The notes under the pieces were generated by a model that did not search any database, was not told the origin of the DNA, and was given only the letters and a program-made list of their open reading frames with translations. This document shows, piece after piece, positions 4,839 to 53,890 of a DNA stretch of 64,000 nt. A program made the translations under genes and the position numbers. Source of the DNA: Clostridia bacterium (GTDB lineage: Bacteria; Bacillota; Clostridia; Oscillospirales; CAG-272); the NCBI GenBank assembly GCA_017504625.1, contig JAFVQU010000016.1, positions 9,129 to 73,128 on the forward strand, read 5' to 3'. Positions within the stretch are counted from its first letter, which is position 1, and the number at the start of each line of letters is the position of its first letter.

Positions 4839-4880
4839 GCGGCAACCTCAAGAATTTGGGGGTTGCCGCGTTTTCTTTTC
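4839..4880 (+). terminator. Rho-independent terminator after pfp
   Basis: GCGGCAACC-12 nt loop-GGTTGCCGC followed by GTTTTCTTTT. It overlaps the 5' part of ORF 4863, which argues for a later start of that ORF. Confidence 0.7.
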
Positions 4881-4943
4881 GCGCTGATATTTTCCGTGCG
4901 CTTATTTTTTATGAAAGGAGGGATTTTTCTGAAGGTCAGAGAA

Positions 4944-5249
4944 ATGCTTGATATCATTGACGCCACAAAGGAAAACGACGTCCCCGAGGGGCTTAAGATA
5001 AGATGGCTCAACGACGTGGAGGGCAGAGTTATGTGCGAGGTCTGTCGGGCGATGCCCGAAAGCGTAAAGTCTATCGTGTCGCTTGAGGACGAGCTTTGCG
5101 TGCCCGAGGCGTATTCGATGCTCTACGTGCTTTACGTCGTGTCGATGATAGAGTTTACAAAGGGCGATTACAGCGATTTCGCACGTCTTACGCTCGAGTT
5201 TGAGAAGGCGTTTGAGCTTTACGCGAGATGGTATATCAGAAATTCATAA
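4944..5249 (+). CDS. Hypothetical protein (about 101 aa)
   Basis: ORF 4863..5249. I prefer ATG 4944 because the upstream part overlaps the pfp terminator. No motif recognised. Confidence 0.4.
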   Translation: MLDIIDATKENDVPEGLKIRWLNDVEGRVMCEVCRAMPESVKSIVSLEDELCVPEAYSMLYVLYVVSMIEFTKGDYSDFARLTLEFEKAFELYARWYIRNS

Positions 5250-5288: not shown

Positions 5289-5317
5289 TTGACACGGTGC
5301 GGCTTTGGGTGTATAAT
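5289..5317 (+). promoter_or_regulatory. Consensus sigma-A promoter
   Basis: TTGACA (5289-5294), 17 nt, TATAAT (5312-5317), upstream of the 877-aa ORF. Confidence 0.65.
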
Positions 5318-42009: not shown

Positions 42010-42040
42010 TGAATTCCAAAACTGACCGATGGGCATAATT
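42010..42040 (+). promoter_or_regulatory. Candidate forespore sigma (F/G)-type promoter of sigG
   Basis: TGAATT, 18 nt, CATAATT (with GGGCATAATT) resembles the GHATR-N17/18-CATNHTA and GG..A.AHTR consensus sequences. Confidence 0.35.
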
Positions 42041-42076
42041 TTTATATCGGTCAATCCGAGGAAACGGAGAAACGAG

Positions 42077-42853
42077 ATGTATTATAACAAGGTTGAAATA
42101 TGCGGAGTCAACACGTCGGAGCTTAAAGTACTTGACGACGACGAGAAAAGAGAGCTTCTCTTGAGGATCCGCGACGGAGACACCGAGGCAAGACAGGAGC
42201 TGATATACGGAAATTTGCGACTCGTGCTGTCGGTCATCAAAAAGTTTGGCGGTAAAAAGGATAATGCCGACGATCTTTTTCAGGTTGGGTGCATCGGTCT
42301 GTGCAAGGCGGTTGACAACTTCAATGTAGAGCTTGACGTAAAATTCTCGACCTATGCCGTGCCGATGATCATTGGTGAGGTCAGACGGTATCTGCGCGAC
42401 AACAACGCCATAAGGATCAGCAGATCGTTGCGTGATCTCGCCTACCGCGCGCTCCAGGCGCGCGAGCAGATACAAAGTGAGAAGATGTGCGACGCTACGG
42501 TCGACGAGATAGCCGAGCGAGTCGGATGCGAGAAGGAATCGATCGCGCGGGCGATGGAGGCGATAATCGAGCCGATATCTATATACGAGCCGGTCTACAA
42601 CGACGGCGGTGACTCGCTTTACGTCATAGATCAGCTCAGCGACGAGGGCTCGGGCGAGGAGAGCTGGCTTGAGGATATCGCTCTGTCCGATGCGTTCAAG
42701 CATCTGAGTGAGCGTGAAAAAATGATAATAAATATGCGTTATTTCAAGCGGCGCACCCAGACCGAGATCGCGGGTGAGATAGGAATATCGCAAGCGCAGG
42801 TATCAAGGCTTGAAAAGTGCGCGCTTGAAAAAATGCGGCGGCAGATGGTGTGA
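42077..42853 (+). CDS. sigG: Sporulation sigma factor SigG
   Basis: NKVEICGVNTSEL, GNLRLVLSVI, DDLFQVGCIGL, KFSTYAVPMIIGEVRRYLRDNN, YNDGGD and ISQAQVSRLEK closely track B. subtilis SigG as I recall it. Confidence 0.9.
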   Translation: MYYNKVEICGVNTSELKVLDDDEKRELLLRIRDGDTEARQELIYGNLRLVLSVIKKFGGKKDNADDLFQVGCIGLCKAVDNFNVELDVKFSTYAVPMIIGEVRRYLRDNNAIRISRSLRDLAYRALQAREQIQSEKMCDATVDEIAERVGCEKESIARAMEAIIEPISIYEPVYNDGGDSLYVIDQLSDEGSGEESWLEDIALSDAFKHLSEREKMIINMRYFKRRTQTEIAGEIGISQAQVSRLEKCALEKMRRQMV

Positions 42854-42933
42854 AAACGGCGGACAGCTCAAAGTGGATTTGCTGACGAAAGCAAAAAGGC
42901 GGATTAACTTAAAAAAGAGATTATAGACAAACG

Positions 42934-42975
42934 AAAAAAGCGGTACGACAAACGTCGTACCGCCTTCGTTTTTTA
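42934..42975. terminator. Bidirectional terminator between convergent sigG and ftsZ
   Basis: A6-GCGGTACGAC-aaac-GTCGTACCGC-cttcg-T6. Confidence 0.8.
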
Positions 42976-42980
42976 TAAAA

Positions 42981-44057
42981 TTACTTCTTAACGCTCTTGA
43001 ATCCGCCGAAGAATGTCTCAAAGGGATCCTCGTCCTTCTTAGCGGACGCGGTCGTACCTCTGTACATAGGGGTAGCGATGGGGGGCTTCTTCTCGTCCTT
43101 CTTGTCAAATCCGGTTGCGATGATGGTAACCTGCATCTCGTCCTCAAGCTCGTCGTCAAAGCCAACGCCCCAGATGATGTTTGCGTCGGGATGAGCTTCG
43201 TTCTGGATAAGAGTTGCAGCAAGCTCTGCATCCTCAAGTCCAACGTCGGGAGATACGACGAAGCGGATAAGGATACCTTGCGAGCCGGTGATGGAGGACT
43301 CGAGAAGGGGAGAGGAGATAGCCATCTTTGCGGCGATCTCTGCCTTGTCCTTACCGGTAGCGGAGCCAACGCCCATGTGAGCGTAGCCTGCGTCTCTCAT
43401 AATGGTGGAAACGTCCGCAAAGTCAAGTCCGATGAAGGAGGAGCCGTTAACGAGGTCGGAAATGCTCTTGACACCGGTGTAGAGAACGCTGTCTGCTACC
43501 TCGAATGCGTTTGCAAGAGTAATTCTCTGGTCGCTTACTTCCTTGAGCTTGTCGTTGGGGATGATAATAAGGGCGTCTACGAACTGAGCAAGCTCGTTGA
43601 TACCTTCCTCGGCGTTCTTTGCTCTTACCTTACCCTCAAAGGAGAAGGGACGGGTAACGATACCGATGGTGAGAATGCCCATTTCCTTTGAGATGCGAGC
43701 AACTACGGGAGCTGCGCCCGTACCTGTTCCGCCGCCCATACCTGCGGTAACGAATACCATGTCGGTATCTGTGAGGAGAGACTTGATCTCGTCGATAGAT
43801 TCCTCAGCCGCGCGCTTACCGATCTCGGGGCGAGCGCCTGCGCCACGTCCGCCGGTGAGCTTTTCACCGATAACGAGCTGAGAGGGCGCGTTGGAACGAT
43901 GGAGAGCCAAACGGTCTGTGTTAACGGTGATGAATTCAACACCCTTGATGTTTGAATAGATCATTCTGTTTACTGCGTTGTTACCGCCGCCGCCGACACC
44001 GATGACCTTTATGTTGGCACCTACTTCAATAGCGTCGTCATGTTCGAAAATTCCCAT
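42981..44057 (-). CDS. ftsZ: Cell division GTPase FtsZ
   Basis: [28 protein letters not shown] tubulin signature, conserved C-terminal peptide region. Confidence 0.97.
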
Positions 44058-44225: not shown

Positions 44226-45029
44226 CTATCCGTTATAAAATCTTCTGAGAAAACCGTCGTCAAGATCGGAATGAGCAAAGGGTGAGCGCGCTGAGCTCAG
44301 GCGCATCTGCATTGTGGGAGAGTAGCCGACCTCGCCGACAATAATATGCTCGATAAGCGTTACCCCGATGGCTGAGAGTGCCGCCTCTATCCTTGCGGTG
44401 ATCTCGCGGTCAGAGCTGCTTGGTATAGCGACGCTTGAAGGGTGATTGTGCGAGATTATTGCGTTCGTGGCGTTCTCGGCAAGAGCAAGTCTTGCTATCG
44501 TTCTCGGGTCTATCGACGCGCTGTTTGCGCTTCCGCTTGATATTTCGCTGAATTTTATAAGTCGCATTGAGCTGTCAAGCAGCATCACGCAAAATCTTTC
44601 TTCCTTAAGTCCCGAAAAATACTGCGTCAGAAATTCGCCGACCGAGGAGAGCGTATCGTATACAGCCTTGCATGAAGGTATGATCACCTTGTCGCGCCTG
44701 TATATTTCGGAGACGAGCGAAAAGAGAAGCGCGGTATTGTCCTTGACACCCTTGATCTGCGTAAGTCTTTGCCAATCTGCTTCAATTGCCTTTCTCGGTG
44801 AGCCGAACTTGTCAACAAGCTCGTGCGCCATATCGTTTGTGTTTCTTTGCGGTATCGAATAGAAAAGAAGCATTTCCATAAGCTCGTGATCGCTGAAGAT
44901 CCTTGCGCCGAACTCTGTATACTTGTTTTTCATTCTTTGCCGATGACCTGCGTGGCTATGTCCCGAAGTCCCGTTTTTGATGAGTGCTTTATCTGTTTGC
45001 TTTAGTTTCATACTGTGTCCATAATGCAT
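44226..45029 (-). CDS. radC: RadC-family JAB-domain protein
   Basis: GHRQRMK, HELMEMLL and the ISHNHPSS JAMM-like motif. The start is uncertain (45029 or ATG 45011). Confidence 0.85.
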   Translation of the reverse strand: MHYGHSMKLKQTDKALIKNGTSGHSHAGHRQRMKNKYTEFGARIFSDHELMEMLLFYSIPQRNTNDMAHELVDKFGSPRKAIEADWQRLTQIKGVKDNTALLFSLVSEIYRRDKVIIPSCKAVYDTLSSVGEFLTQYFSGLKEERFCVMLLDSSMRLIKFSEISSGSANSASIDPRTIARLALAENATNAIISHNHPSSVAIPSSSDREITARIEAALSAIGVTLIEHIIVGEVGYSPTMQMRLSSARSPFAHSDLDDGFLRRFYNG

Positions 45030-45310
45030 ATATTTGATTTATACAACCAACATGGTTGATTTTATGCAAGCTTTCCTTGAATTGTCCTTTTAACGCATAT
45101 AAAACCAAAATGAATATTATACATGAAATGCCAATTAATATTCATATTGGCGATGGAAACGCCCCACCGTGATTGAGGTTTTATGACCTTGTTTCCGTTT
45201 GTTTTCGGTAAAACGTGAAGGGCGTTGACCTTTACCTTGTTTTCTTAATCTCGGGAAACGCGATCTTTCTGATATAATAGTCGTGTTTTGAGCGAAAGGA
45301 GAAGTCTATA

Positions 45311-45532
45311 ATGGACAACACAATTGAAAAGCATACCGAGTACGTAACTGCGCGAGTGGTCAAAACGAACCGCGGCTACGGACTATTTATTATAAGCGGT
45401 GACGGGAAAGGGAAGACCTATCCCGATCTGACAAGCGACCTTGCGCTGCTATGTGACTTTGCCGACAGGATAAACGAGGGTGAGGTGTCACCACTGCACG
45501 TCTACGATATTATCGAGGATATGCTTGGATAG
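45311..45532 (+). CDS. Hypothetical small protein (73 aa)
   Basis: RBS AAAGGAGAAG. Convergent with the repressor gene. No motif recognised. Confidence 0.5.
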   Translation: MDNTIEKHTEYVTARVVKTNRGYGLFIISGDGKGKTYPDLTSDLALLCDFADRINEGEVSPLHVYDIIEDMLG

Positions 45533-45619
45533 CCGCAACAGAGTGTTCTTGCCGACGTTTGTCGTCAGCAGCATCAGTATGCATCCGCAAACCGCCATGA
45601 AAATTCTTGTGATCGTTTA

Positions 45620-46240
45620 TCAGCGCACCGCCGATTTAAACGCGACCGCCCTGCCTATAATGTGTATCTTATCCAGCTCCTTGCCTTCAAATACGAGGGG
45701 CTGGTAATTTGCGTTTTCGGGGATAAGCATTATTTTCTGCGCGTCGGGGTAGTAATAAACGCGCTTGAGCGTTGCCTCATCGTTTATAATTACCGCCGCG
45801 ATCTCGCCGTTATTCACCATATCGGCTTTTTTTATGAAAACAGTATCGCCGTGGCAGATGCGCGCGTCCTTCATACTGTCGCCGTTTGCAATAAGGCAAA
45901 AGTCCGCGTCGGTGTCAATATCGGTTACGACCGAGCCTCCGTCCTCCTGGTTAGCAAAGACGGGATATCCGCAGGATATCTCACCGATGAGGGGAAGAAG
46001 TTTGAATTTTGACGAGCCCCGCTTTTGCATTGTGACGTCGTCGGTGTTGCCGAGCAGGAAGCTCTCGCTGACTCCGAGCGCGTTTGCGATAGCGCAGATG
46101 GCGTCTGCCTTTGGTATATACACACCGTTGACATACTGGCTCATTCTCGGCTTCGAAATACCCGTTCTGCGCGAAAGCTCAGCGGCTTTAATATTCTTTT
46201 CTTGCATTACGTGGGTAAGACGTGACCTGAAATCAACCAT
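45620..46240 (-). CDS. CI/LexA-like repressor (XRE HTH plus S24 peptidase domain)
   Basis: The N-terminal HTH (IKAAELSRRTGISKPRMSQYVNG) is XRE-type, not the LexA winged helix. The C-terminus has GDSM (Ser) and LKR (Lys) dyad motifs, and CG sits at the position of the LexA AG cleavage site. ATG 46240 lies 6 nt after AAAGGTGGTG. Confidence 0.85.
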   Translation of the reverse strand: MVDFRSRLTHVMQEKNIKAAELSRRTGISKPRMSQYVNGVYIPKADAICAIANALGVSESFLLGNTDDVTMQKRGSSKFKLLPLIGEISCGYPVFANQEDGGSVVTDIDTDADFCLIANGDSMKDARICHGDTVFIKKADMVNNGEIAAVIINDEATLKRVYYYPDAQKIMLIPENANYQPLVFEGKELDKIHIIGRAVAFKSAVR

Positions 46241-46268
46241 TTGCGCCACCACCTTTCTTTCATTTTTG

Positions 46269-46297
46269 ATTATAACACATAGTTAAGCAAATGTCAA
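46269..46297 (-). promoter_or_regulatory. Consensus promoter of the repressor gene
   Basis: Minus strand: TTGACA, 17 nt, TATAAT. The spacer contains a GTTAAGCAA operator-like half site. Confidence 0.7.
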
Positions 46298-46343
46298 CAG
46301 TTTTGAAGAAAAAAGTTAAATAAATTTAATTATCGCTTGGGGG

Positions 46344-46372
46344 TTGACAAAATAGAACGTTAGTGCTATAAT
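46344..46372 (+). promoter_or_regulatory. Consensus rightward promoter of the phage-like operon
   Basis: TTGACA (46344-46349), 17 nt, TATAAT (46367-46372), followed at once by GTTAAGattgCAAAAC. Confidence 0.7.
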
Positions 46373-46556
46373 TTGGACAGTTAAGATTGCAAAACGGGCA
46401 GAGATCGTAACAATCCTTATTTTGTAAGATAAAATCATACGGTGACGAAATCGGGGCTTTTGTCGTACTTAAAAACACCAAATTGAAAAATAAAGCTTCA
46501 ATTTATTTCCATATTAAGCATGACAGAAATACGGCTTTTATTTTTTTAACGATACG

Positions 46557-46572
46557 GTTAAGCAAACTTAAC
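46557..46572. promoter_or_regulatory. Perfect 16-bp palindrome, candidate repressor operator
   Basis: GTTAAG-CAAA-CTTAAC. Related sites GTTAAG-N4/5-(G/C)(T/A)(C/A)AAC lie at 46282-46298 and 46380-46395, with a half site at 46513. Confidence 0.5.
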
Positions 46573-46600
46573 AATATATAAATGCGCCCCTTAGCCTGTT

Positions 46601-46846
46601 TTGGAGCGCGGAAAGGTAAAGATTTTGGCGTTTGCAGGAATGTGCCCCTACTTAAAGGAAGCGAAGACGGTTGATCGCACGGTTTGCGAGTGCGCTCGCT
46701 TCACCTTTCCCGACAGGGCTTGCCGTCGGGAAATTTTATACGGATATTGCGGACATCCTACCGAGTGGAAGAATTGTCCGTTCAAGAAAGCTATGGATGA
46801 CTTTTACGAAAGGAAGTATGCTGAGGATGCAAAAAAAATCAGTTGA
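46601..46846 (+). CDS. Small Cys-rich protein (7 Cys in about 70-81 aa), unknown function
   Basis: First ORF of the rightward operon. Start uncertain (TTG 46601, TTG 46625 or ATG 46640). Cys pattern: CPY...CEC...C...C...C. Confidence 0.4.
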   Translation: MERGKVKILAFAGMCPYLKEAKTVDRTVCECARFTFPDRACRREILYGYCGHPTEWKNCPFKKAMDDFYERKYAEDAKKIS

Positions 46847-47096
46847 CGGAATTATGAGCCTTAAAAACCGTGAGATCAAAGCCTTGAAGGAGCAAAATCA
46901 GGCTCTTGAGATCACAAACACGATCATTTCAGCCTATTTGTCTGTGCTTGTCGAGAGGCTTGGCGGCGTGAGGATACCAAAGCGCGAGATCAGCGCGGCG
47001 CTTGGCGGCTTTGTCACGACGGCGCAGTCGGACGGTGAGGATTACGTGATTAAGGTTGAAAAGCTTTCTCCCGTGGGTGAGCGCGGTGAAGAATAA
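46818..47096 (+). CDS. Small coiled-coil protein, unknown function
   Basis: NREIKALKEQNQALEITN heptad-like segment. Start uncertain (46818 or 46854). Overlaps the neighbouring ORFs. Confidence 0.4.
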   Translation: MLRMQKKSVDGIMSLKNREIKALKEQNQALEITNTIISAYLSVLVERLGGVRIPKREISAALGGFVTTAQSDGEDYVIKVEKLSPVGERGEE

Positions 47097-47604
47097 CAAA
47101 TATTTAAAATGGAAGGAAACGTCGGGGCTTGAGAGCATACGCCGACTTGCCGAGGAGGGACTTTCCGACGAGGAGATAGGCATTCGCTCGGGGATAGGCG
47201 TCACGCTTTTGCGCAGATGGAAGAAAAAGATACCCGAATTCGCCGCCGCAATTGAGCTTGGGCGCGCGGGGGCAGATTACGCCGTCGTTGAGGCGCTTTA
47301 CAAGAAGGCGGTAGGGTATAACGTGTCACTTTCAAAGACGTATAAGCTCAAAAGGGTTGATTACGATCCCGAAACCGGCAAAAAGCTGCGCGAATACGAG
47401 GAGCTTGCGACGGGAATTGATGAAAATTACTTCCCGGGCGACCTCAAGGCAGAGACCTTCTGGCTTCGCAACCGCCAGCCTGAGCGTTGGAGCGAAAAGC
47501 CCACGCGGGCGCAGGGTGACGGTGAGGAGGGTGGCTTTGGAGTGGTCGAGCTTCCCGAAGCAGACACAATCGACGACGAGCCTGACAGTCCTGACGGTGA
47601 CTGA
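47056..47604 (+). CDS. Terminase small subunit
   Basis: N-terminal HTH-like LAEEGLSDEEIGIRSGIGVTLLRRWKKK, then ...VEALYKKAVGY..., typical of Firmicute phage TerS. Position is directly upstream of TerL. The start may be GTG 47086. Confidence 0.7.
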   Translation: MKSFLPWVSAVKNNKYLKWKETSGLESIRRLAEEGLSDEEIGIRSGIGVTLLRRWKKKIPEFAAAIELGRAGADYAVVEALYKKAVGYNVSLSKTYKLKRVDYDPETGKKLREYEELATGIDENYFPGDLKAETFWLRNRQPERWSEKPTRAQGDGEEGGFGVVELPEADTIDDEPDSPDGD

Positions 47605-47622
47605 GCGCGTGAGGTTAAGAAT

Positions 47623-49092
47623 ATGGTGATCTGGCGACCTCAGCCGAGGCAGGCGGAATTTATGCGGCGACTTGAGGACGAGGCGCTTTACGGTGGCGCG
47701 GCAGGCGGAGGCAAGAGCGATTGCGCGCTTGCCGAGGCACTAAGACAGATAAATATTCCGCATTACAGAGGCTTGATACTCAGAAAGACATATCCCCAGC
47801 TCTCCGAGCTTATCGACCGCTCACACGAGATCTACGGCGCGGCGTGCCGTGGCGCAGTCTACAACGAAACCAAGCATTTCTGGCATTTTCCCTCGGGAGC
47901 CAAGATATATTTCGGCTCGCTTGCACATCTTGACGACCGGTATAACTATCAGGGAAAGCGCTATGATTTCATTGATTTCGACGAGCTGACGCAGTTCACC
48001 TTTGACGAATACAGCTATCTTTTCTCGCGTAACCGACCGAACGGCCCCGGCACTCGCTGTTATATGCGTGCGCAGGCAAACCCCGGCGGCATCGGTCACG
48101 GCTGGGTAAAGGAGAGATTCGTCACACCAGCGCCGCCCCTCACGACGATATGGGAAAGCGTCAAGGTCAGGTTTCCCGACGGACACGAGGAGATACGCAA
48201 AAAATCGCGCATCTTCGTTCCGTCAACCGTCTTTGACAACAAAATATTGCTTGAGAACGATCCCGATTATCTTACGCGCCTTGCGTCCTTGCCCGAGGCA
48301 GAGAGAGCCGCTCTGCTTTACGGTGATTGGAATAGCTTTTCAGGGCAGGTTTTTACCGAATGGAAAAACGAGCCCGACGGTTATCTTGACAGAGCCTCCA
48401 CGCACGTGATCTCCCCATTTAAAATTCCGCGCGATTGGAAGGTCTACAGGAGCTTTGACTGGGGCTATTCGCGTCCGTTTTCGGTGGGATGGTACGCGGA
48501 GGACAGTGACGGAGTGCTTTATCGCATCCGCGAGCTTTACGGCTGCACGTCAACCCCGAACGAGGGTGTAAGATGGGAGGCGGCGAAGATAGCCGCAGAG
48601 ATAAAGAGGATAGAGCGAGAGGATGAAAACCTATCGGGCAGAGCTATCCGCGGTATTGCCGACCCCGCGATATATCAGAAGAACGGCGGTGAGAGTATCG
48701 GCGGTATCATGGAGAAGCAGGGAGTATACTGGGATCGCGCGGACAACTCGCGAATTGCGGGCAAGCAGCAGATACACAACCGACTTGCCTTTGACGGCGC
48801 GGGCAGACCAAGGCTGTATATTTTCTCGACCTGCCGACAGTTTATAAGGACGTTTCCGTGCCTCGTTTACGACACGGTTGACGTTGAGGACGTTGACACG
48901 TCGGGTGAGGATCATATCTACGACGAGCTTCGCTATATGTGCATGGAGCGTCCCGTAAGGGCGATATTGAAGCCTCGCGGAGAAGCTCTCCTTGTCCGAG
49001 CAGATCCCTTGGAGCTTTATACTCCGCAAAAATCCTCTTATCCCTTGCGCGCTCGCTTTTCGGAGAGCGGGGGAAGAAACACATTTTTATAA
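47623..49092 (+). CDS. Terminase large subunit
   Basis: QAEFM...GGAAGGGKSD Walker A, DFDELT Walker B-like motif, C-terminal nuclease-like region (EDHIYDELRY). Confidence 0.9.
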   Translation: MVIWRPQPRQAEFMRRLEDEALYGGAAGGGKSDCALAEALRQINIPHYRGLILRKTYPQLSELIDRSHEIYGAACRGAVYNETKHFWHFPSGAKIYFGSLAHLDDRYNYQGKRYDFIDFDELTQFTFDEYSYLFSRNRPNGPGTRCYMRAQANPGGIGHGWVKERFVTPAPPLTTIWESVKVRFPDGHEEIRKKSRIFVPSTVFDNKILLENDPDYLTRLASLPEAERAALLYGDWNSFSGQVFTEWKNEPDGYLDRASTHVISPFKIPRDWKVYRSFDWGYSRPFSVGWYAEDSDGVLYRIRELYGCTSTPNEGVRWEAAKIAAEIKRIEREDENLSGRAIRGIADPAIYQKNGGESIGGIMEKQGVYWDRADNSRIAGKQQIHNRLAFDGAGRPRLYIFSTCRQFIRTFPCLVYDTVDVEDVDTSGEDHIYDELRYMCMERPVRAILKPRGEALLVRADPLELYTPQKSSYPLRARFSESGGRNTFL

Positions 49093-49175
49093 TTGCCTCG
49101 CATTTTTGAGGGGCGAAGAAGGACATTTTTGTAATCGCCTCTCATTTTGAGAGCGCAGAAAGGACGTTTTATTAA
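49073..49175. repeat. 42-bp tandem repeat, about 2.5 copies, at the terL/portal junction
   Basis: Units start at 49073, 49115 and 49157: GAAGAA..ACATTTTT.TAAT.GCCTC.CATTTT(T)GAG.G. Confidence 0.75.
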
Positions 49176-50747
49176 ATGAACAAGGAAAAAGTAAGTGCTT
49201 TCCCCGACGTGATAAAGGCGGTATCGACGCTTGCCGACTACAAAAGAGGGAAGCGTGAGCTTGAATTGCGCCTCTCTCACGAAAGGGAGGTATGGAAAGC
49301 GGTTTATTCGGGATCGGGCTCTTCATCCTGGATATTTAACAGTATCGTAAATAAGCACGCCGACGTGATCGACAGTATACCGACCTGCGTTTGCCTGCCG
49401 AGAGAAAAGCGCGACGAGAAGGATGCCGAGAAGCTCTCAAAGATAATTCCCGTTATCAGCGAAAGATGCAATTTTGAGCAGACCTATTCCGAAAACACCT
49501 GGAACAAGCTCAAGCACGGAAGCGCGATCTACGGAGTTTTCTGGAATAGCTCGCTTGAGGGCGGACTTGGCGATATCGACATCCGTTCTCTTGATATTTC
49601 AAGCGTTTACTGGGAGCCCGGCATCACCGACATCGAGGACTCAAAAAATCTCTTTATCGTCGGATATTGTGATCCCGAGCAGCTTGAAATGATATATCCT
49701 CACTTCAATTTTGAGCGTGAGAGCGAGTCGATTGACCGCGTCGCGACGAGCGTGGGTCTTGGAGTGAAGGATGGAGAAAAATGCGCCGTTATCGACTGGT
49801 ATTACAAGAAATACTCTCAGGACGGCACCCCGATATTGCATTATTGCAAGTTCGTGGGCGGATGCGTGCTTTATAGCTCCGAGGGCGAAGAGGGATGCAT
49901 TGACGGCTGGTACGAGCATGGCAAATATCCTATCGTTTTTGACAATATGTATCCCCAGTACAGCGACGTTTGCGGCTTTGGACTTATCTCTATTGCAGAC
50001 AAGCCGCAGGAGTATATCAACCGACTTGACGAGAACATTCTCGGTTATAGCGATTGGGCATCACGCGTGCGCTTCTGGGCAAAGCGAAGCCTTGGAGTCA
50101 ACGAAAAGGATTTTCTTGATCTTGACAAGAGCATCGTCGAGGTCGAGGGCGATATCGACGAGGAAAAGCTCAAGCAGATCGAGATAGGCGCGCTTGACGA
50201 CTCGATAATCAACGTCAAGCTGCTTAAAATTGACGAGCTTAAGGAGATAACCGGCTCGCGCGACGTGTCGCAGGGCGGTATCTCGGGCGGTGTAACCGCC
50301 GCGTCGGCGATCAGTATATTGCGCGAGGCGGGAGCTAAGACCTCGCGTGACGGAATTGCCGAAACTTATCGAGCCTACGTCAAGATAATGTCGCTCGTCA
50401 TCGAGCTTATAAGACAGTTCTACGATGGGAACAGAGTTTTCCGCATCGTCGGTGATACGGGCGAGAGAGAATACCTTGAATTTTGCGGCAGAGATATCCG
50501 CGGACGCGACGGCTGCTTCAGACCCTTCTTTGATATTGAGGTCAGCGCGAGCAAAAAGTCGCCTACCGAGTCAAAGCAGAAAAACGAATTTGCCAAGTCG
50601 CTTTACGACGCGGGAGCATTTGATCCCGAAAACCGTGAGCAGACGCTTATGATGCTTGAGCTTATGGACTTTGAGGGCGTCGGCAAGCTGAAGGGCAGCC
50701 TCAGGCATGCGTCGGAGGGACACGGAAATGATAAGAGTAAGCCTTAA
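49176..50747 (+). CDS. Phage portal protein
   Basis: 523 aa, immediately after TerL. The overall pattern and acidic C-terminus are consistent with portal proteins. Called from position and size plus partial motif recollection. Confidence 0.8.
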   Translation: MNKEKVSAFPDVIKAVSTLADYKRGKRELELRLSHEREVWKAVYSGSGSSSWIFNSIVNKHADVIDSIPTCVCLPREKRDEKDAEKLSKIIPVISERCNFEQTYSENTWNKLKHGSAIYGVFWNSSLEGGLGDIDIRSLDISSVYWEPGITDIEDSKNLFIVGYCDPEQLEMIYPHFNFERESESIDRVATSVGLGVKDGEKCAVIDWYYKKYSQDGTPILHYCKFVGGCVLYSSEGEEGCIDGWYEHGKYPIVFDNMYPQYSDVCGFGLISIADKPQEYINRLDENILGYSDWASRVRFWAKRSLGVNEKDFLDLDKSIVEVEGDIDEEKLKQIEIGALDDSIINVKLLKIDELKEITGSRDVSQGGISGGVTAASAISILREAGAKTSRDGIAETYRAYVKIMSLVIELIRQFYDGNRVFRIVGDTGEREYLEFCGRDIRGRDGCFRPFFDIEVSASKKSPTESKQKNEFAKSLYDAGAFDPENREQTLMMLELMDFEGVGKLKGSLRHASEGHGNDKSKP

Positions 50748-51057
50748 AAAAGAGGGAAGCGATCTTAGATTGATCCTTTGCGGTCACGCAAATTACGCGC
50801 CGCGCGGCGAGGATATAGTATGCGCCGCGGCATCGGGCATCGTTTACGCGCTTATGGGCTATCTTCTCAATTTCGGCAAGAGCGATTTCAAGATCAACGC
50901 GGTGGAGGAGGGCTACGCGGACCTTCTTTGCGCGGATAGGTATACCGATATATTAAAGCTTGTCGTGCTTGGGCTTGTTCAGCTTGAGGCGACCTACCCG
51001 GGATACATATCGGTAGATACTAAGGTCTGGAATTGGAACGTGAGAAAACCCGCGTAA
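50728..51057 (+). CDS. Prp-like cysteine protease (ribosomal-processing protease family)
   Basis: LCGHANYAPRGEDIVCAAAS matches the His...Cys dyad context (GHA...DIVCA) of Prp/DUF464. ATG 50728 follows GGAGGGA and overlaps the portal 3' end. Confidence 0.8.
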   Translation: MIRVSLKKEGSDLRLILCGHANYAPRGEDIVCAAASGIVYALMGYLLNFGKSDFKINAVEEGYADLLCADRYTDILKLVVLGLVQLEATYPGYISVDTKVWNWNVRKPA

Positions 51058-51098
51058 AGTCACCCCTTGGGGTTTGGAAGGAGTTTACGTTTTTACTT

Positions 51099-51821
51099 AT
51101 GGAAGAAAACAGAATCGCCGCGCCCGGCGATACGGGCGGAATGGGAGGAAGCACTCCCGAGGAAATGGGGACAAGCGCCCCCGAAACAAACAACGGTACC
51201 GAAAAAAATAATCTTAATCAGAACAGTGGCTCCGTCTCGGCGGCAGGCGGAGCCGGGAACGATGACAGAACGGCAGAGCGCGAGGAATACGACCGACTGA
51301 TAAAGACGAGATTCAAGGATTTCTACACAGAGGACACGCAGAGGATGATAAACCGTCGCTTTAAGCACTATAAGACTCTTGCTGAGAAATACAAGACTCT
51401 CGAGGATTCCTTTTCGCAGAGCTCGCCCTCGCGCATCTCTGACGGGGAGCTGCTTGAAAGGATAAAGGCGGGTGCTGACGAGATAAGCGCAAAGCATAGT
51501 GATTTTTCGCTTGACGAGGCTTGCTCGTCCGAGCAATTTATCTCGCTTGCAAGACTTGCGCTTGAGGGTGGCTCTATCAGCTTGTCACAGGCGTATAAGC
51601 TCTCGTTTTTCGACAAATTGCTATCGATGGAAAGAGAGAGAGCCGAGCGCGAGACAGAGCAGAGAATATACGACAAGATAAGATCGGGCCGCGCGCGCGG
51701 ACTTGAAAACGCAGTTCTGCCAAGGACGGGAGCGAGGAGCTTTTCCGCCTCCCGATTGACCAAAAACGACAGAGCCGAGCTTGCCAGACGAGCCGCCAAC
51801 GGCGAGAAGATCGGCTTTTAA
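51099..51821 (+). CDS. Putative scaffolding protein
   Basis: Position between the protease and the capsid gene. It has a low-complexity acidic N-terminus and helical, charged repeats. No specific motif. Confidence 0.5.
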   Translation: MEENRIAAPGDTGGMGGSTPEEMGTSAPETNNGTEKNNLNQNSGSVSAAGGAGNDDRTAEREEYDRLIKTRFKDFYTEDTQRMINRRFKHYKTLAEKYKTLEDSFSQSSPSRISDGELLERIKAGADEISAKHSDFSLDEACSSEQFISLARLALEGGSISLSQAYKLSFFDKLLSMERERAERETEQRIYDKIRSGRARGLENAVLPRTGARSFSASRLTKNDRAELARRAANGEKIGF

Positions 51822-51924
51822 AGGAGATATAACAATATGTCCCGATTTGAAAGAATAATCAACAAAATTTTAATTTTCCTCTTCTTATTTTTGAGAAGAG
51901 GCGCGAGGAAAGGACACAGAAAAC

Positions 51925-53205
51925 ATGACAGAAATAAAGACTAATCTTCAGCTCTTCGGTGCGGGCGAGGCGGTGCTTGGCACTGAGGGCGTTATCAATG
52001 CGGATAATGGCAACGTAAAGGCTTACGGTATCGGCGAGGGACTCTCTGAGGAGATGAAGACCTACTATTCCGACTACCTTATCGACAACGCGGAGCCCGC
52101 GCTCGTTCACGATCGCTTCGCGCAGAAGCACAAAATTCCCACGGGCAACGGCAAGACCATTCAGTTCCGCAAGTACGATCCGCTTCCCAAGCTCACCTCT
52201 CCCATCGCGGAGGGTGTTACCCCCACAGGTCAGACCATCAATATGGGCACTCTCAACGCGACCGTCGCTCAGTACGGCGGCTACGTTGAGCTTACCGACC
52301 TTCTTATTATGACCGCTATCGACAATAATCTTTGCATGGCGACAAAGCTTCTCGGCTCTCAGGCAGGCAGAACGCTCGACTCTATCTCAAGAGAAGTGCT
52401 CGTAGGAGGCACAAACGTTCAGTACGGCGAGGGCAAGGTAAGCTCTCGCGCGCAGCTCGTCGGCGGGGAGGCTGAGGGCAACCATTATCTTACCGTTGAC
52501 GCGGTTCGCCGCGCGGTGAGATTCCTCAAGAATCAGAACGCAGAGAAGATCGACGGCGCTTACGTTGCGATCATTCATCCCGATTGCGCTTACGATCTTA
52601 TGAGCGATCCCAACTGGAAGTATCCCCATCAGTATGCTGATCCCTCCGCAATTTTTGAGGGTGAGATCGGCAAGATCGAGGGCGTAAGATTTATCGAAAG
52701 CACCGAGGCAAAGGTATTCCACGCAAACGACCTTGCCGAGAACATGAGAACTCTTACAGTGTCGGGCTCTGCAAACGGTGACACCGTTAATTTCTCGACC
52801 GACGCAACCGTTTATGAGGGTGCGCTTATCGGCAGAGAGGTGCTTATCGACGGCAAGAAGTATTACGTTTCGGCAAACACCGCTTCCTCTATGACCCTTT
52901 GCACCGACAGCACCAAGCAGACCGCGGCAAACGTAAATTGTGATAGCGGCACTATCATCTATCCCGGTGAGGCGGGCGCGTGCGGAGTTGACGTTTACGC
53001 AACTCTCGTATTTGGCGACAACGCTTACGGTACTACCGCGCTTTCCGACGGCGGACTTGAGCATATCGTAAAGCAGCTTGGCAGTGCGGGCAGCTCCGAC
53101 CCTCTTAACCAGAGAGCGACTGTCGGCTGGAAGGCAACAAAGGTCACTGTTCGTCTTGTTGAGGCGTTCATGATCCGTATCGAGACCGCGGCAAGCGCGG
53201 CTTGA
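51925..53205 (+). CDS. Major capsid protein
   Basis: 426 aa. The N-terminus MTEIKTNLQLFGAG is L27-like and resembles a Prp-cleavage motif. ...GKTIQFRKY... and ...VAQYGGYVELTD... are typical of Firmicute phage major capsid proteins. Confidence 0.85.
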   Translation: MTEIKTNLQLFGAGEAVLGTEGVINADNGNVKAYGIGEGLSEEMKTYYSDYLIDNAEPALVHDRFAQKHKIPTGNGKTIQFRKYDPLPKLTSPIAEGVTPTGQTINMGTLNATVAQYGGYVELTDLLIMTAIDNNLCMATKLLGSQAGRTLDSISREVLVGGTNVQYGEGKVSSRAQLVGGEAEGNHYLTVDAVRRAVRFLKNQNAEKIDGAYVAIIHPDCAYDLMSDPNWKYPHQYADPSAIFEGEIGKIEGVRFIESTEAKVFHANDLAENMRTLTVSGSANGDTVNFSTDATVYEGALIGREVLIDGKKYYVSANTASSMTLCTDSTKQTAANVNCDSGTIIYPGEAGACGVDVYATLVFGDNAYGTTALSDGGLEHIVKQLGSAGSSDPLNQRATVGWKATKVTVRLVEAFMIRIETAASAA

Positions 53206-53260
53206 TAAAAAACAAGCCAAGCAGCTTGATTTATAAAGTTGTATCGGCTTGAAAATAAAA

Positions 53261-53289
53261 GCCAAGCCCTTTATTTCAAAGGGCTTGGC
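53261..53289. terminator. Strong hairpin downstream of the capsid gene
   Basis: GCCAAGCCCTTT-atttc-AAAGGGCTTGGC. An A-tract lies upstream but no T-tract lies downstream on the plus strand, so orientation and function are ambiguous. Confidence 0.5.
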
Positions 53290-53458
53290 ACCCCAAAATA
53301 TAAAATAAAAAAGAAAAAGCCGCGTATGCGGCGGACTGCGTGAAAGGCTTGCGAATTTCAGTAGTGAAACAAACTTTTTCACGCGCGAATTTTGCCTGAC
53401 GGACAAAATTCATCGATTATTTTTTTTAGCCGCGTATGCGGCGGAAAGGTTTTATAAT

Positions 53459-53836
53459 ATGGAAAAGTATAAGGAATCTATTGCGGCACTCAAGGCAGAA
53501 TACGAGCAGAAGCTCGCAGAAAAGGATGCTGAAAACGCGCGCTTGCGCGGCGAAAAGAAGACCGCCGAGGAAAAGGCGAAGGCAAAGGCGGCTGAATACG
53601 AGGCGTACCTCAACGAATACATTTCGGTCAAGCTCTTTAAGGATAACGACAAGTACCGTGACGACGTTTACGTTGCGGTGAACGGTCAGAACTGTGTTAT
53701 AAAGCGCGGCGAATGGGTTAAAATAAAGAGAAAGTTCGCTCTCGTGCTCGACGCGTCTGAAATTCAGGATATGAAGACGGCACAGCTTATCGAAAACGAG
53801 CAGAGAAGCTTTATCAATCAGAGCAGAGCCGTTTAA
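53459..53836 (+). CDS. Hypothetical coiled-coil protein (125 aa)
   Basis: Lys/Glu/Ala-rich helical N-terminal half and a beta-rich C-terminal half. RBS GGAAAGG. Confidence 0.5.
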   Translation: MEKYKESIAALKAEYEQKLAEKDAENARLRGEKKTAEEKAKAKAAEYEAYLNEYISVKLFKDNDKYRDDVYVAVNGQNCVIKRGEWVKIKRKFALVLDASEIQDMKTAQLIENEQRSFINQSRAV

Positions 53837-53861: not shown

Positions 53862-53890
53862 TTGACATATTTGCCCTTTGATGATATAAT
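53862..53890 (+). promoter_or_regulatory. Consensus promoter
   Basis: TTGACA, 17 nt, TATAAT, upstream of the DUF2974-like gene. Confidence 0.65.

Follow-up and report, generated by a model that had tools for sequence, protein, structure and literature searches.

Phage head and packaging genes that stand in a bacterial chromosome under a phage-type repressor may be the remains of a prophage, a satellite that borrows its tails, or a system that the host lineage has kept. This question was raised by a block of such genes in the window, a 64,000-nucleotide stretch of a contig from a Clostridia bacterium. We interpreted the block, with a probability of about 0.7, as an operon for head assembly and DNA packaging that belongs to a domesticated GTA-like element of podovirus origin, which a large clade of gut Clostridia inherits vertically and preserves under selection. 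Its family also includes FpGTA operon I, described in Faecalibacterium prausnitzii/duncaniae (Nat Commun 2026, PMC12946183).

The module consists of a repressor gene, two divergent promoters and one operon at 45620-53836. The original prediction had placed it at 44226-53836; the head and packaging module was real, but radC (44226-45029) is a neighbour outside it. All ORFs were present as claimed and uninterrupted, and eight of them had profile matches (Pfam, PHROG, NCBIfam); three likely starts differ from the predicted ORF bounds. The features are as follows, the operon genes in their order.

45311..45532, plus strand: DUF6514 small protein (PF20124, 4e-06), convergent to the repressor gene
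45620..46252, minus strand: CI-like repressor, XRE-type HTH fused to an S24 (LexA/UmuD-type) autopeptidase (Peptidase_S24, 1e-23; HTH_3/HTH_26; phrog_4, 6e-39)
46253..46624, no strand assigned: genetic switch region (promoter scan, comparison of loci)
46297-46269, minus strand: P-rep, perfect TTGACA-17-TATAAT with extended -10 TG (promoter scan)
46344-46372, plus strand: P-operon, perfect TTGACA-17-TATAAT with extended -10 TG (promoter scan)
46601..46846, plus strand: small Cys-rich protein, first operon gene; likely start TTG 46625, 73 aa (alignment A7)
46671..47096, plus strand: small coiled-coil protein; likely start about 46854, 80 aa
47056..47604, plus strand: TerS, small terminase subunit, 182 aa (phrog_309, 3e-26)
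47623..49092, plus strand: TerL, large terminase subunit, Terminase_6N type (phrog_979, 1e-57)
49176..50747, plus strand: portal, P22/podovirus type (PF16510, P22_portal, 3e-23; phrog_156, 4e-62)
50707..51057, plus strand: Prp-type cysteine protease (PF04327, 2e-15)
51033..51821, plus strand: scaffold-like protein (phrog_13908, 5e-26); likely start 51099, 240 aa, the length also given by gene callers
51925..53205, plus strand: major capsid protein, N4-gp56 family (TIGR04387, 3e-88; phrog_1357, 2e-81)
53459..53836, plus strand: 125-aa protein, p125, of a family of unknown function (phrog_15239, 5e-24)

Relatives were found in uncultured gut Clostridia/Oscillospiraceae, where 256 species-level genomes matched and 80 of them were fetched; the module clade is represented by uncultured MAGs only. 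The module was fully intact in 59 of the 69 fetched loci with enough contig coverage, the other ten showing contig ends or Prp-scaffold fusions. It was collinear in the relatives and often at the same dcw/sigG site. In the closest clade it lies between sigG/ftsZ/radC and Mbeg1/KH/rpsP/ffh, and in more distant clades still beside sigG, or beside the dcw cluster and sigG.

The dN/dS values of the module genes ranged from 0.06 to 0.39. They were 0.06-0.19 for the repressor (0.06), TerL (0.085), p125 (0.10), the Cys-rich protein (0.115), the capsid (0.124), the portal (0.147) and TerS (0.19), and 0.39 for the small coiled-coil protein, against 0.118 for ftsZ and 0.058 for ffh. Module divergence tracked that of FtsZ and Ffh (Mantel r=0.93, p=1e-4), the capsid evolving at 1.4 times their rate. 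Since the chromosomal site was the same, and the co-divergence held across lineages in which synonymous sites were near saturation, this showed vertical inheritance rather than mobility.

The switch was conserved as well. The repressor carries the predicted GDSM serine and LKR lysine, with Cys-Gly where LexA has Ala-Gly (LPLIGEISCGYP); GDSM and [LIVM]KR were found in 49/49 orthologues, and Cys-Gly in 43/49. Host LexA was rejected as its identity because the LexA model score was below cutoff. The two perfect TTGACA-N17-TATAAT promoters, also predicted, were recovered by the scan as divergent sigma-70 promoters, and the pair was kept in about 48 related loci. In an alignment of 23 switch regions (A2), TTGAC, TG.TATA.T and C.GT..AG were invariant. 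A conserved palindrome, TAGAAC-N4-GTGCTA, lies within the P-operon spacer, and conserved palindromic sites of the GTTAAG type lie at 46281, 46314 and 46379. Downstream of these is an untranslated leader of about 230 nt; the switch and leader region had no match in Rfam. Some other loci of the family have an ImmR/ImmA-like switch in place of the CI-like one. Such a conserved switch is new relative to the FpGTA description.

No homologues of adaptor, nozzle, XhlA-like, holin, endolysin, integrase or replication genes were found by profile searches between 44.2 and 55.1 kb, as had been predicted. The ORFs at 46601-47096 and 53459-53836 gave no adaptor or connector match. The absence of an adaptor is limited to these coordinates: elsewhere in the window, a homologue was found 41 kb from the module.

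4863..5249, plus strand: detached head-tail adaptor homologue; likely start CTG 4929 (4929-5249) or ATG 4944, about 102-107 aa

It was recovered by tblastn with the adaptor family (8e-17), by phrog_12105 (8.5e-14) and by a family HMM (2.6e-25); FpGTA proteins of the RCH50847 type, whose annotation is 'Adaptor (PDB 7sp4)', match phrog_12105 too. The gene lies between pfk and a gene for a CvpA-like membrane protein and has its own promoter. This synteny was kept in relatives (86% and 60% identity), as were the promoter and RBS. The detached, syntenically conserved adaptor homologue is new relative to the FpGTA description, and so is an operon that has lost its adaptor and nozzle genes.

FpGTA operon I has the same gene order from TerS through TerL, portal, Prp, scaffold and N4-gp56 capsid to a small phrog_15239 protein. 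Identities were 60% for TerL (F. duncaniae A2-165), 40% for the portal (E 1e-125), 40% for Prp, 46-54% for the capsid and 41% for p125. Like the window module, it is chromosomal and lacks integrase and replication genes. It is near-ubiquitous in its own host clade, and its structural genes, as in the window element, are spread over more than one locus. On the other hand, FpGTA operon I continues with an adaptor, a tail nozzle, a 67-aa protein and a 421-aa 'TolA' protein, which the window operon lacks, the adaptor having moved away. The divergent CI-like S24 repressor and the conserved Cys-rich first gene of the window module also set it apart, FpGTA operon I having an M16 peptidase gene as upstream neighbour and no adjacent repressor. 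Prp and scaffold are separate genes in the window and fused (317 aa) in Faecalibacterium, and about 80 aa of the window capsid (residues about 266-344) are an insertion that the FpGTA protein lacks.

FpGTA particles have been seen experimentally. They are 40 nm in size, contain about 9 kb of host DNA each and show no visible tails by EM, but nozzle and fibre proteins were detected in them by proteomics, as were the annotated Prp homologue RCH50850 and the p125 homologue RCH50848 (PMC12946183). The fibre, RBP and lysis genes are in a second locus, operon II, about 125 kb away (PMC12946183). Our reading makes the window module a further variant of this recently described kind of element.

A functionless prophage remnant or recent deletion derivative would account for a phage-type repressor and structural genes in a chromosome without tail, lysis or replication genes. 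We consider this very improbable: dozens of species-level genomes share the intact layout, the dN/dS values are comparable to those of ftsZ and ffh, promoters and operators are conserved, and the capsid gene has diverged at synonymous sites (pS 0.55) as little as its highly expressed neighbours. The very recent deletion offered by the original prediction is contradicted by the same reduced layout in lineages with saturated synonymous sites. Its other suggestion, a capsid-forming satellite or 'hitcher' (cf-PICI-like or immobile), would fill its own heads with DNA and take nozzle and fibres from a co-resident or infecting podophage. A gene set for heads only, under a repressor of its own and with a full-length TerS, fits this, nozzle, fibre and lysis genes were not found nearby, and related podophage-like contigs of about 40 kb could supply compatible tails. 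cf-PICIs are likewise chromosomal islands with their own capsid, portal, protease and TerS, no tail and repressor control. However, they have an integrase, att sites, a replication module and head-tail connectors, use the TerL of a helper and move horizontally. The window module has its own TerL and is vertically inherited; neither an integrase, an excisionase, a replication module nor flanking att-like repeats or an adjacent tRNA were found, and the adaptor gene has a conserved chromosomal locus of its own. A satellite is thus unlikely. The conservation, selection and co-divergence data argue against both a decaying prophage and a mobile satellite.

A slightly better, though still unlikely, alternative is a DNA-filled capsid domesticated for a use other than injection, such as protected extracellular DNA release or SOS-linked altruism, with nozzle and fibres truly lost. 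Nozzle and adaptor are absent beside the head genes in all 22 closest loci and adjacent in more distant lineages, purifying selection on the head genes remains strong, and the FpGTA particles lack visible tails. Against this, the retention of a conserved adaptor gene elsewhere speaks for a tail structure that is still built next to the portal, and FpGTA particles do contain nozzle and fibre proteins. The absence of tail genes is also judged from 64 kb of genome only. Homologues of nozzle, tail fibre, XhlA-like, holin and endolysin genes were not found in these 64 kb, nor, in the 22 closest loci, at a distance of up to 10 kb from the capsid gene; this counts against the GTA-like reading too, in which the particle may be incomplete.

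The GTA-like reading, which the original prediction had also offered, is supported by the wide synteny, purifying selection, housekeeping co-divergence and the homology of the block to FpGTA operon I, which has been characterised experimentally. The block is probably the head operon of a multi-locus, SOS-inducible element. At rest, the repressor would occupy the conserved palindromes overlapping both promoters, silencing the operon and regulating its own gene. On DNA damage, activated RecA would stimulate self-cleavage at Cys-Gly through the Ser/Lys dyad and derepress the operon. Procapsids would be assembled from portal, scaffold and capsid protein, and Prp, the presumed maturation protease, would cut the N-terminal capsid propeptide at LQLF/G. 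TerS and TerL would then fill the heads by a headful mechanism. The adaptor from the 4.9 kb locus would close the portal; nozzle, fibres and lysis proteins, if present, would come from further loci outside the window, as in FpGTA operon II. The packaged DNA may be passed to recipient cells, a transfer not demonstrated even for FpGTA.

Classical GTAs (RcGTA, BaGTA, VSH-1, PBSX) share with the window element phage-derived structural and packaging genes, dispersal over several loci, vertical inheritance, purifying selection and the lack of replication and integration functions. PBSX also has an Xre-type repressor, and like PBSX the window element probably responds to SOS. Classical GTAs are sipho- or myovirus-like and typically controlled by host regulators; the window element is of podovirus-type ancestry (N4-gp56 capsid, P22-type portal), its phage-type repressor is more prophage-like, and the search of the 64 kb did not recover its tail part. 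Head-module order and families are shared with Bacillus phage Page-like podoviruses and with uncultured podophage contigs of about 40 kb (IMG/VR), the capsid being 35% identical to Page and 48-58% (one at 70%) to the contigs. The scaffold-like gene occupies the position of its Page counterpart. These phages have tail, tailspike, holin/endolysin and replication genes in about 40 kb, of which the window element keeps the first 8 kb or so.

The capsid N-terminus contains a Prp-like motif, NLQLF/GAG, in which L8, Q9 and F11 are invariant. TerS is 182 aa long, against 94 aa in FpGTA, whose TerS is described as being without a DNA-binding domain (PMC12946183). Packaging could be sequence-specific, because the window TerS is full-length and has a weak, sub-threshold HTH_23 match (residues 28-57). 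p125 has a coiled coil at its N-terminus and a conserved domain, about 65 aa long, at its C-terminus (alignment A6), and a 70-aa Faecalibacterium protein also matches phrog_15239 (3e-23). Its AF2 model (pLDDT 71) gave no informative match in Foldseek.

The small coiled-coil protein had no match in the profile searches; it is poorly conserved, its family being present in about 55-62 loci. The Cys-rich protein, present in about 69 loci, had no match in Pfam, PHROG, NCBIfam or PDB. Its C15, C29, C50 and C59 are invariant and H52 nearly so, which suggests zinc binding, and it is a candidate regulator. The DUF6514 gene adjoins the repressor gene in about 20 loci of several lineages (dN/dS 0.40) and is possibly associated with the left edge of the module.

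The head and packaging genes of the original prediction were recovered by ORF listing and profile searches, as one module (45620-53836) encoding a repressor, a Cys-rich protein, a small protein, TerS, TerL (of the Terminase_6N type), portal, Prp, scaffold, capsid and a 125-aa protein (p125, 53459-53836). The map begins with the following gene.

45620-46252, minus strand: repressor, XRE-HTH and Peptidase_S24 (ORF listing, profile searches)

The predicted absence of tail, lysis, replication and integrase genes within 44.2-55.1 kb also stood up to Pfam, PHROG, HMM and BLAST searches. Neither Pfam nor PHROG detected an integrase or replication genes in the module region, and TerL was present and conserved. 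No att-like flanking direct repeats and no adjacent tRNA target were found around the module. The neighbors were all ordinary: radC and ftsZ on the left, and an Mbeg1-like (DUF2974) gene, KH, rpsP and ffh on the right. SigG is the sigma factor encoded at 42029-42853. Directly after the p125 gene comes the Mbeg1-like gene, with a perfect promoter of its own (53862-53890).

A small DUF6514 gene (45311-45532), convergent with the repressor gene, was found adjacent to the repressor in about 20 loci of several lineages. This recurrence suggested that it may belong to the left edge of the element.

The repressor was said to carry GDSM and LKR motifs and Cys-Gly at the position of Ala-Gly in LexA, and this was the case (ISCGYP in the window). 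GDSM and [LIVM]KR were present in all 49 orthologues, and Cys-Gly in 43 of the 49. The Ser-Lys dyad and the predicted scissile Cys-Gly, which separates the DNA-binding domain from the peptidase domain, with a Pfam S24 match of 1e-23, place it among the self-cleaving S24 repressors of the LexA/CI/UmuD type.

A promoter scan showed that both switch promoters are indeed perfect TTGACA-17-TATAAT sequences, each with an extended -10 TG. The divergent pair was kept in about 48 loci. When the switch was aligned from 23 loci, the core TTGAC...TG.TATA.T was invariant. The alignment also contained a conserved palindrome, TAGAAC-N4-GTGCTA, inside the spacer of the operon promoter, and three GTTAAG-type sites, at +1 of the operon promoter, between the promoters and inside the repressor promoter. 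The palindrome (GAAC-N4-GTGC) recalls the Firmicute LexA box, but has GTGC instead of GTTC. The frequency of GAAC-N4-GTKC in the window was not above chance, and the palindrome is notable solely for its conservation in the promoter spacer. The operon would be controlled by a cognate phage-type S24 repressor with these conserved predicted operators.

In one sub-lineage (loci L039 and L069-L080), the S24 repressor was replaced by an XRE-HTH protein and an IrrE/ImmA-like metalloprotease, encoded upstream of the Cys-rich gene (for example, L039:3549-4451). This pair is a different type of switch, likewise damage-responsive. The TerL of these loci was also of a different type (40-45% identity). A link to sporulation, raised by the adjacency of sigG, was dropped, because both promoters match the sigma-A consensus.

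When a genome collection was scanned with the capsid protein, 256 species-representative genomes matched, all of them uncultured Clostridia, 'Eubacteriales' or Oscillospiraceae MAGs, mainly from ruminant and other animal guts. Eighty loci were fetched, and the whole ten-gene module was collinear in them. All six core genes were intact in 59 of the 69 loci with enough contig coverage; the rest were accounted for by contig ends or Prp-scaffold fusions. In the nearest clade, the module lay at the same chromosomal site as in the window. In more distant clades, it adjoined sigG or murG-ftsQ-ftsZ-sigG. The ftsZ and sigG genes were locally inverted between the window (42029-44057; murG ftsQ sigG+ ftsZ-) and a more distant relative (L056:1904-3900; murG ftsQ ftsZ+ sigG-), and the clade of the window alone had radC inserted between the module and ftsZ.

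The dN/dS ratios indicated purifying selection on the module genes.

Table. dN/dS of module genes and neighbors (pairwise Nei-Gojobori estimates, nearest clade)
Repressor: 0.06
TerL: 0.085
125-aa protein: 0.10
Cys-rich protein: 0.115
Capsid: 0.124
Portal: 0.147
TerS: 0.19
ftsZ (neighbor): 0.118
ffh (neighbor): 0.058

Synonymous sites in this clade were near saturation. The pS of the capsid gene (51925-53205) was 0.55, compared with about 0.70-0.77 for the other module genes, and was similar to those of ftsZ, KH and ffh. This suggested high expression or codon adaptation. The non-synonymous distances of capsid, TerL and portal correlated with those of FtsZ and Ffh (Mantel r=0.93, p=1e-4), and the capsid protein evolved at about 1.4 times the rate of FtsZ and Ffh, no more. 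The module has thus been inherited vertically since ancient times under purifying selection. Two MAGs each had two differing module copies on separate contigs (L064/L065 in JAZRDO01 and L048/L063 in JBGVRH01), which may mean either that a single genome carries paralogous elements or that the binning mixed genomes.

Three explanations had been offered for a head module of this kind. A very recent deletion derivative of a prophage is excluded by the old vertical inheritance under selection. In an intact podovirus prophage, of the type of phage Page or the contigs of about 40 kb in IMG/VR, the tail, lysis, replication and integration genes are contiguous with the head genes, whereas the module is without them. 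A satellite resembling the cf-PICIs, which would borrow tails, is strongly argued against by the same inheritance. Such satellites have an integrase and att sites, variable positions and a replication module of their own, and lack TerL. The module, on the other hand, has TerL, no integrase, att or replication genes, a conserved site, and a history of co-divergence with host genes. The explanation that was supported is a domesticated, GTA-like capsid system. Vertical inheritance, purifying selection and no replication or integration genes are what is expected of GTAs in general, and all were found here; homology to the GTA-like particles of Faecalibacterium (FpGTA) pointed the same way.

Among deposited 'phages', the best matches of the capsid protein were unannotated human-faecal 'Bacteriophage sp.' contigs, followed at a greater distance by the Bacillus podovirus Page. 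Faecalibacterium loci, including that of F. duncaniae A2-165 (CP048437), contained ten collinear ORFs, in the order 94 aa, TerL, portal, a Prp-containing protein of 317 aa (presumably a fusion of Prp and scaffold), capsid, 70 aa, 127-145 aa, 623 aa, 67 aa and 421 aa. This locus is operon I of FpGTA (Nat Commun 2026, PMC12946183). The proteomics table of that study lists RCH50851 (portal), RCH50850 (Prp), RCH50849 (N4-gp56 capsid), RCH50848 (no assigned function), RCH50847 (adaptor), RCH50846 (tail nozzle) and RCH50844 (an abundant 'TolA' protein). The particles, described in Faecalibacterium only, are about 40 nm in size, have no visible tails and carry random host DNA of about 8-9 kb; a second operon, about 125 kb off, holds their fibre, RBP and lysis genes (PMC12946183).

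In tblastn against the A2-165 locus (L091), the identities were 60% for TerL, 40% for portal (E 1e-125), 40% for Prp, 46-54% for capsid and 41% for p125. The p125 protein and the Faecalibacterium 70-aa protein both belonged to phrog_15239. TerS, TerL, portal, Prp, scaffold, N4-gp56 capsid and the phrog_15239 protein were thus homologous and collinear with operon I, and by this head-operon homology the window element is assigned to the FpGTA family. With FpGTA in print since January 2026, the element adds no new category. What is new here is the explicit conserved switch, the heads-only operon and the relocated adaptor, in a very large uncultured clade.

The two differ in several respects. FpGTA has no repressor beside operon I, whereas the clade of the window and many others have a divergent S24 repressor with a strongly conserved switch. 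The clade of the window also has a conserved Cys-rich first gene. In FpGTA, the adaptor and nozzle genes lie directly downstream in operon I, whereas the operon in the window contains only the head genes, with the adaptor relocated to 4.9 kb.

In most other lineages, what comes after the p125 gene is an adaptor (phrog_12105 family) or a 73-aa protein, then a nozzle homologue (phrog_511, 5e-28), and often an XhlA-like gene. The operon of the window and those of all 22 nearest loci were without these genes, and none of the 22 loci had an adaptor or nozzle gene within 10 kb of the capsid gene. HMM searches found no nozzle homologue in the 64-kb window, and no fibre, RBP or lysis genes were found there. 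An adaptor homologue was present 41 kb upstream of the module (ORF 4863-5249; tblastn 8e-17, phrog_12105 8.5e-14, family HMM 2.6e-25). It is flanked by pfk and a gene for a CvpA-like membrane protein, an arrangement kept in relatives with 86% and 60% identity, and its promoter (GGGGCCGACAA...TGATAnAAT) and RBS were conserved. BLAST of phage-like and related-locus ORFs against the window revealed no other dispersed phage genes in the 64 kb.

In 14 loci (L002-L005, L008, L018, L020, L045, L056, L059, L060, L064, L066 and L075), which belong to several lineages, the p125 gene was followed by a gene of another, highly conserved family, F41, which is absent from the window. Its products are about 580 aa long (585 aa in the cited case), with N-terminal transmembrane segments and a mean identity of 63%. 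An example is L002:11799-13556, and a barstar-like gene sometimes lies just before it. F41 matched nothing in Pfam, PHROG, NCBIfam or PDB. A divergent nozzle was considered and rejected (hhalign probability 3%, no family matches), and F41 was taken to be a neighbor of the module.

These features would fit the following scheme. The repressor, on its predicted operators, would keep the consensus operon promoter off until RecA stimulates the repressor to cleave itself at Cys-Gly, which would relieve the repression. The operon-encoded Prp would act as the capsid maturation protease. The N-terminus of the capsid protein (NLQLF|GAG, with L8, Q9 and F11 invariant), which resembles the Prp cleavage motif found in L27 and in the head proteins of phage 80alpha, fits this role. 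TerS and TerL of the Terminase_6N type suggested headful packaging, and the adaptor from its separate locus would close off the portal.

A further reading is that the clade truly lost its nozzle and fibres, and that the SOS-controlled operon and relocated adaptor make sealed, tail-less, DNA-filled capsids, for a role other than injection or for completion by tails of unrelated podophages. We consider this improbable. If true, a non-injection role might be to protect extracellular DNA or to supply a public good that damage releases, and in either case the module would represent an undescribed category, a non-mobile 'capsid donor' fixed in the chromosome.

Two recent virome studies reported abundant GTA-like packaging from Oscillospiraceae and relatives, with the gene clusters mostly not identified, and much of the capsid-protected bacterial DNA in the gut was attributed to Oscillospiraceae and Ruminococcaceae. 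The sole responsible cluster identified so far is FpGTA in Faecalibacterium. Hundreds of other Clostridia species of animal and human guts, most of them uncultured, have this podovirus-derived head operon as a fixed feature, and this distribution points to one ancient domestication, or a few. The conserved switch, which FpGTA lacks (a self-cleaving CI-like repressor in most lineages, an ImmR/ImmA-like pair in one sub-lineage), yields a hypothesis that can be tested directly, namely that SOS induction leads to particle production.

Exact-sequence look-up identified the faecal 'phage' contigs as bacterial chromosome. MT835662 (L082) is the locus of [Eubacterium] siraeum DSM 15702, and further contigs come from Dialister and Oscillospiraceae. 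Many of the short 'viral' contigs in GenBank (MT836159, MT835662, MT836150 and MT836218; L082-L086) and IMG/VR (UViGs L098-L110) are therefore chromosomal loci of the FpGTA type filed as bacteriophage, from Faecalibacterium, [Eubacterium] siraeum, Dialister and Oscillospiraceae. Their labels probably came from recovery in the VLP fraction or from flagging by the head genes. IMG/VR also holds the module as 'viral' fragments of up to 10 kb with 81-86% capsid identity. Its contigs of about 40-42 kb (48-58% capsid identity, 70% in one), in which additional genes separate the 125-aa homologue from the adaptor and nozzle, are probably genuine podophages related to the ancestor.

In the cultured species [Eubacterium] siraeum, the locus (L082:117-12454) ran from TerL, portal, scaffold, capsid, a small protein, adaptor and nozzle to a 594-aa tail-like protein, a 341-aa protein, holin and endolysin. 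Heads through lysis are thus contiguous there, whereas FpGTA has its heads in operon I and its fibre, RBP and lysis genes in operon II. The layouts show fragmentation after domestication: contiguous in [Eubacterium] siraeum, two operons in Faecalibacterium, and heads with a moved adaptor in the window. [Eubacterium] siraeum is a convenient experimental model for the family.

Structural and RNA searches added little. AlphaFold2 gave an unusable model of the detached adaptor (pLDDT 47, alignment of 11 homologues). The p125 model reached pLDDT 71, and Foldseek was uninformative (GINS-like topology at E>=0.06 in PDB, uncharacterized phage proteins in BFVD). PDB profile searches with the p125, Cys-rich, F41 and nozzle families returned no significant match, and an Rfam search of 44-55.5 kb, long leader included, returned no credible RNA family. 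The product of the Cys-rich first gene is small and matched no known family; in the alignment, four of its Cys are invariant and one His is nearly so.

The 253-bp spacer between the capsid and p125 genes (53206-53458) contained a hairpin with a 13-bp stem (53261-53289) and the palindromic AGCCGCGTATGCGGCGGA in two perfect copies of 18 bp, at 53318 and 53428, the latter just upstream of the p125 RBS. These repeats were not kept in relatives. Two more perfect TTGACA-17-TATAAT promoters were found, at 5289-5317 before the CvpA-like 877-aa gene and at 53862-53890 before the Mbeg1-like gene, and perfect consensus promoters seemed unusually frequent around these loci.
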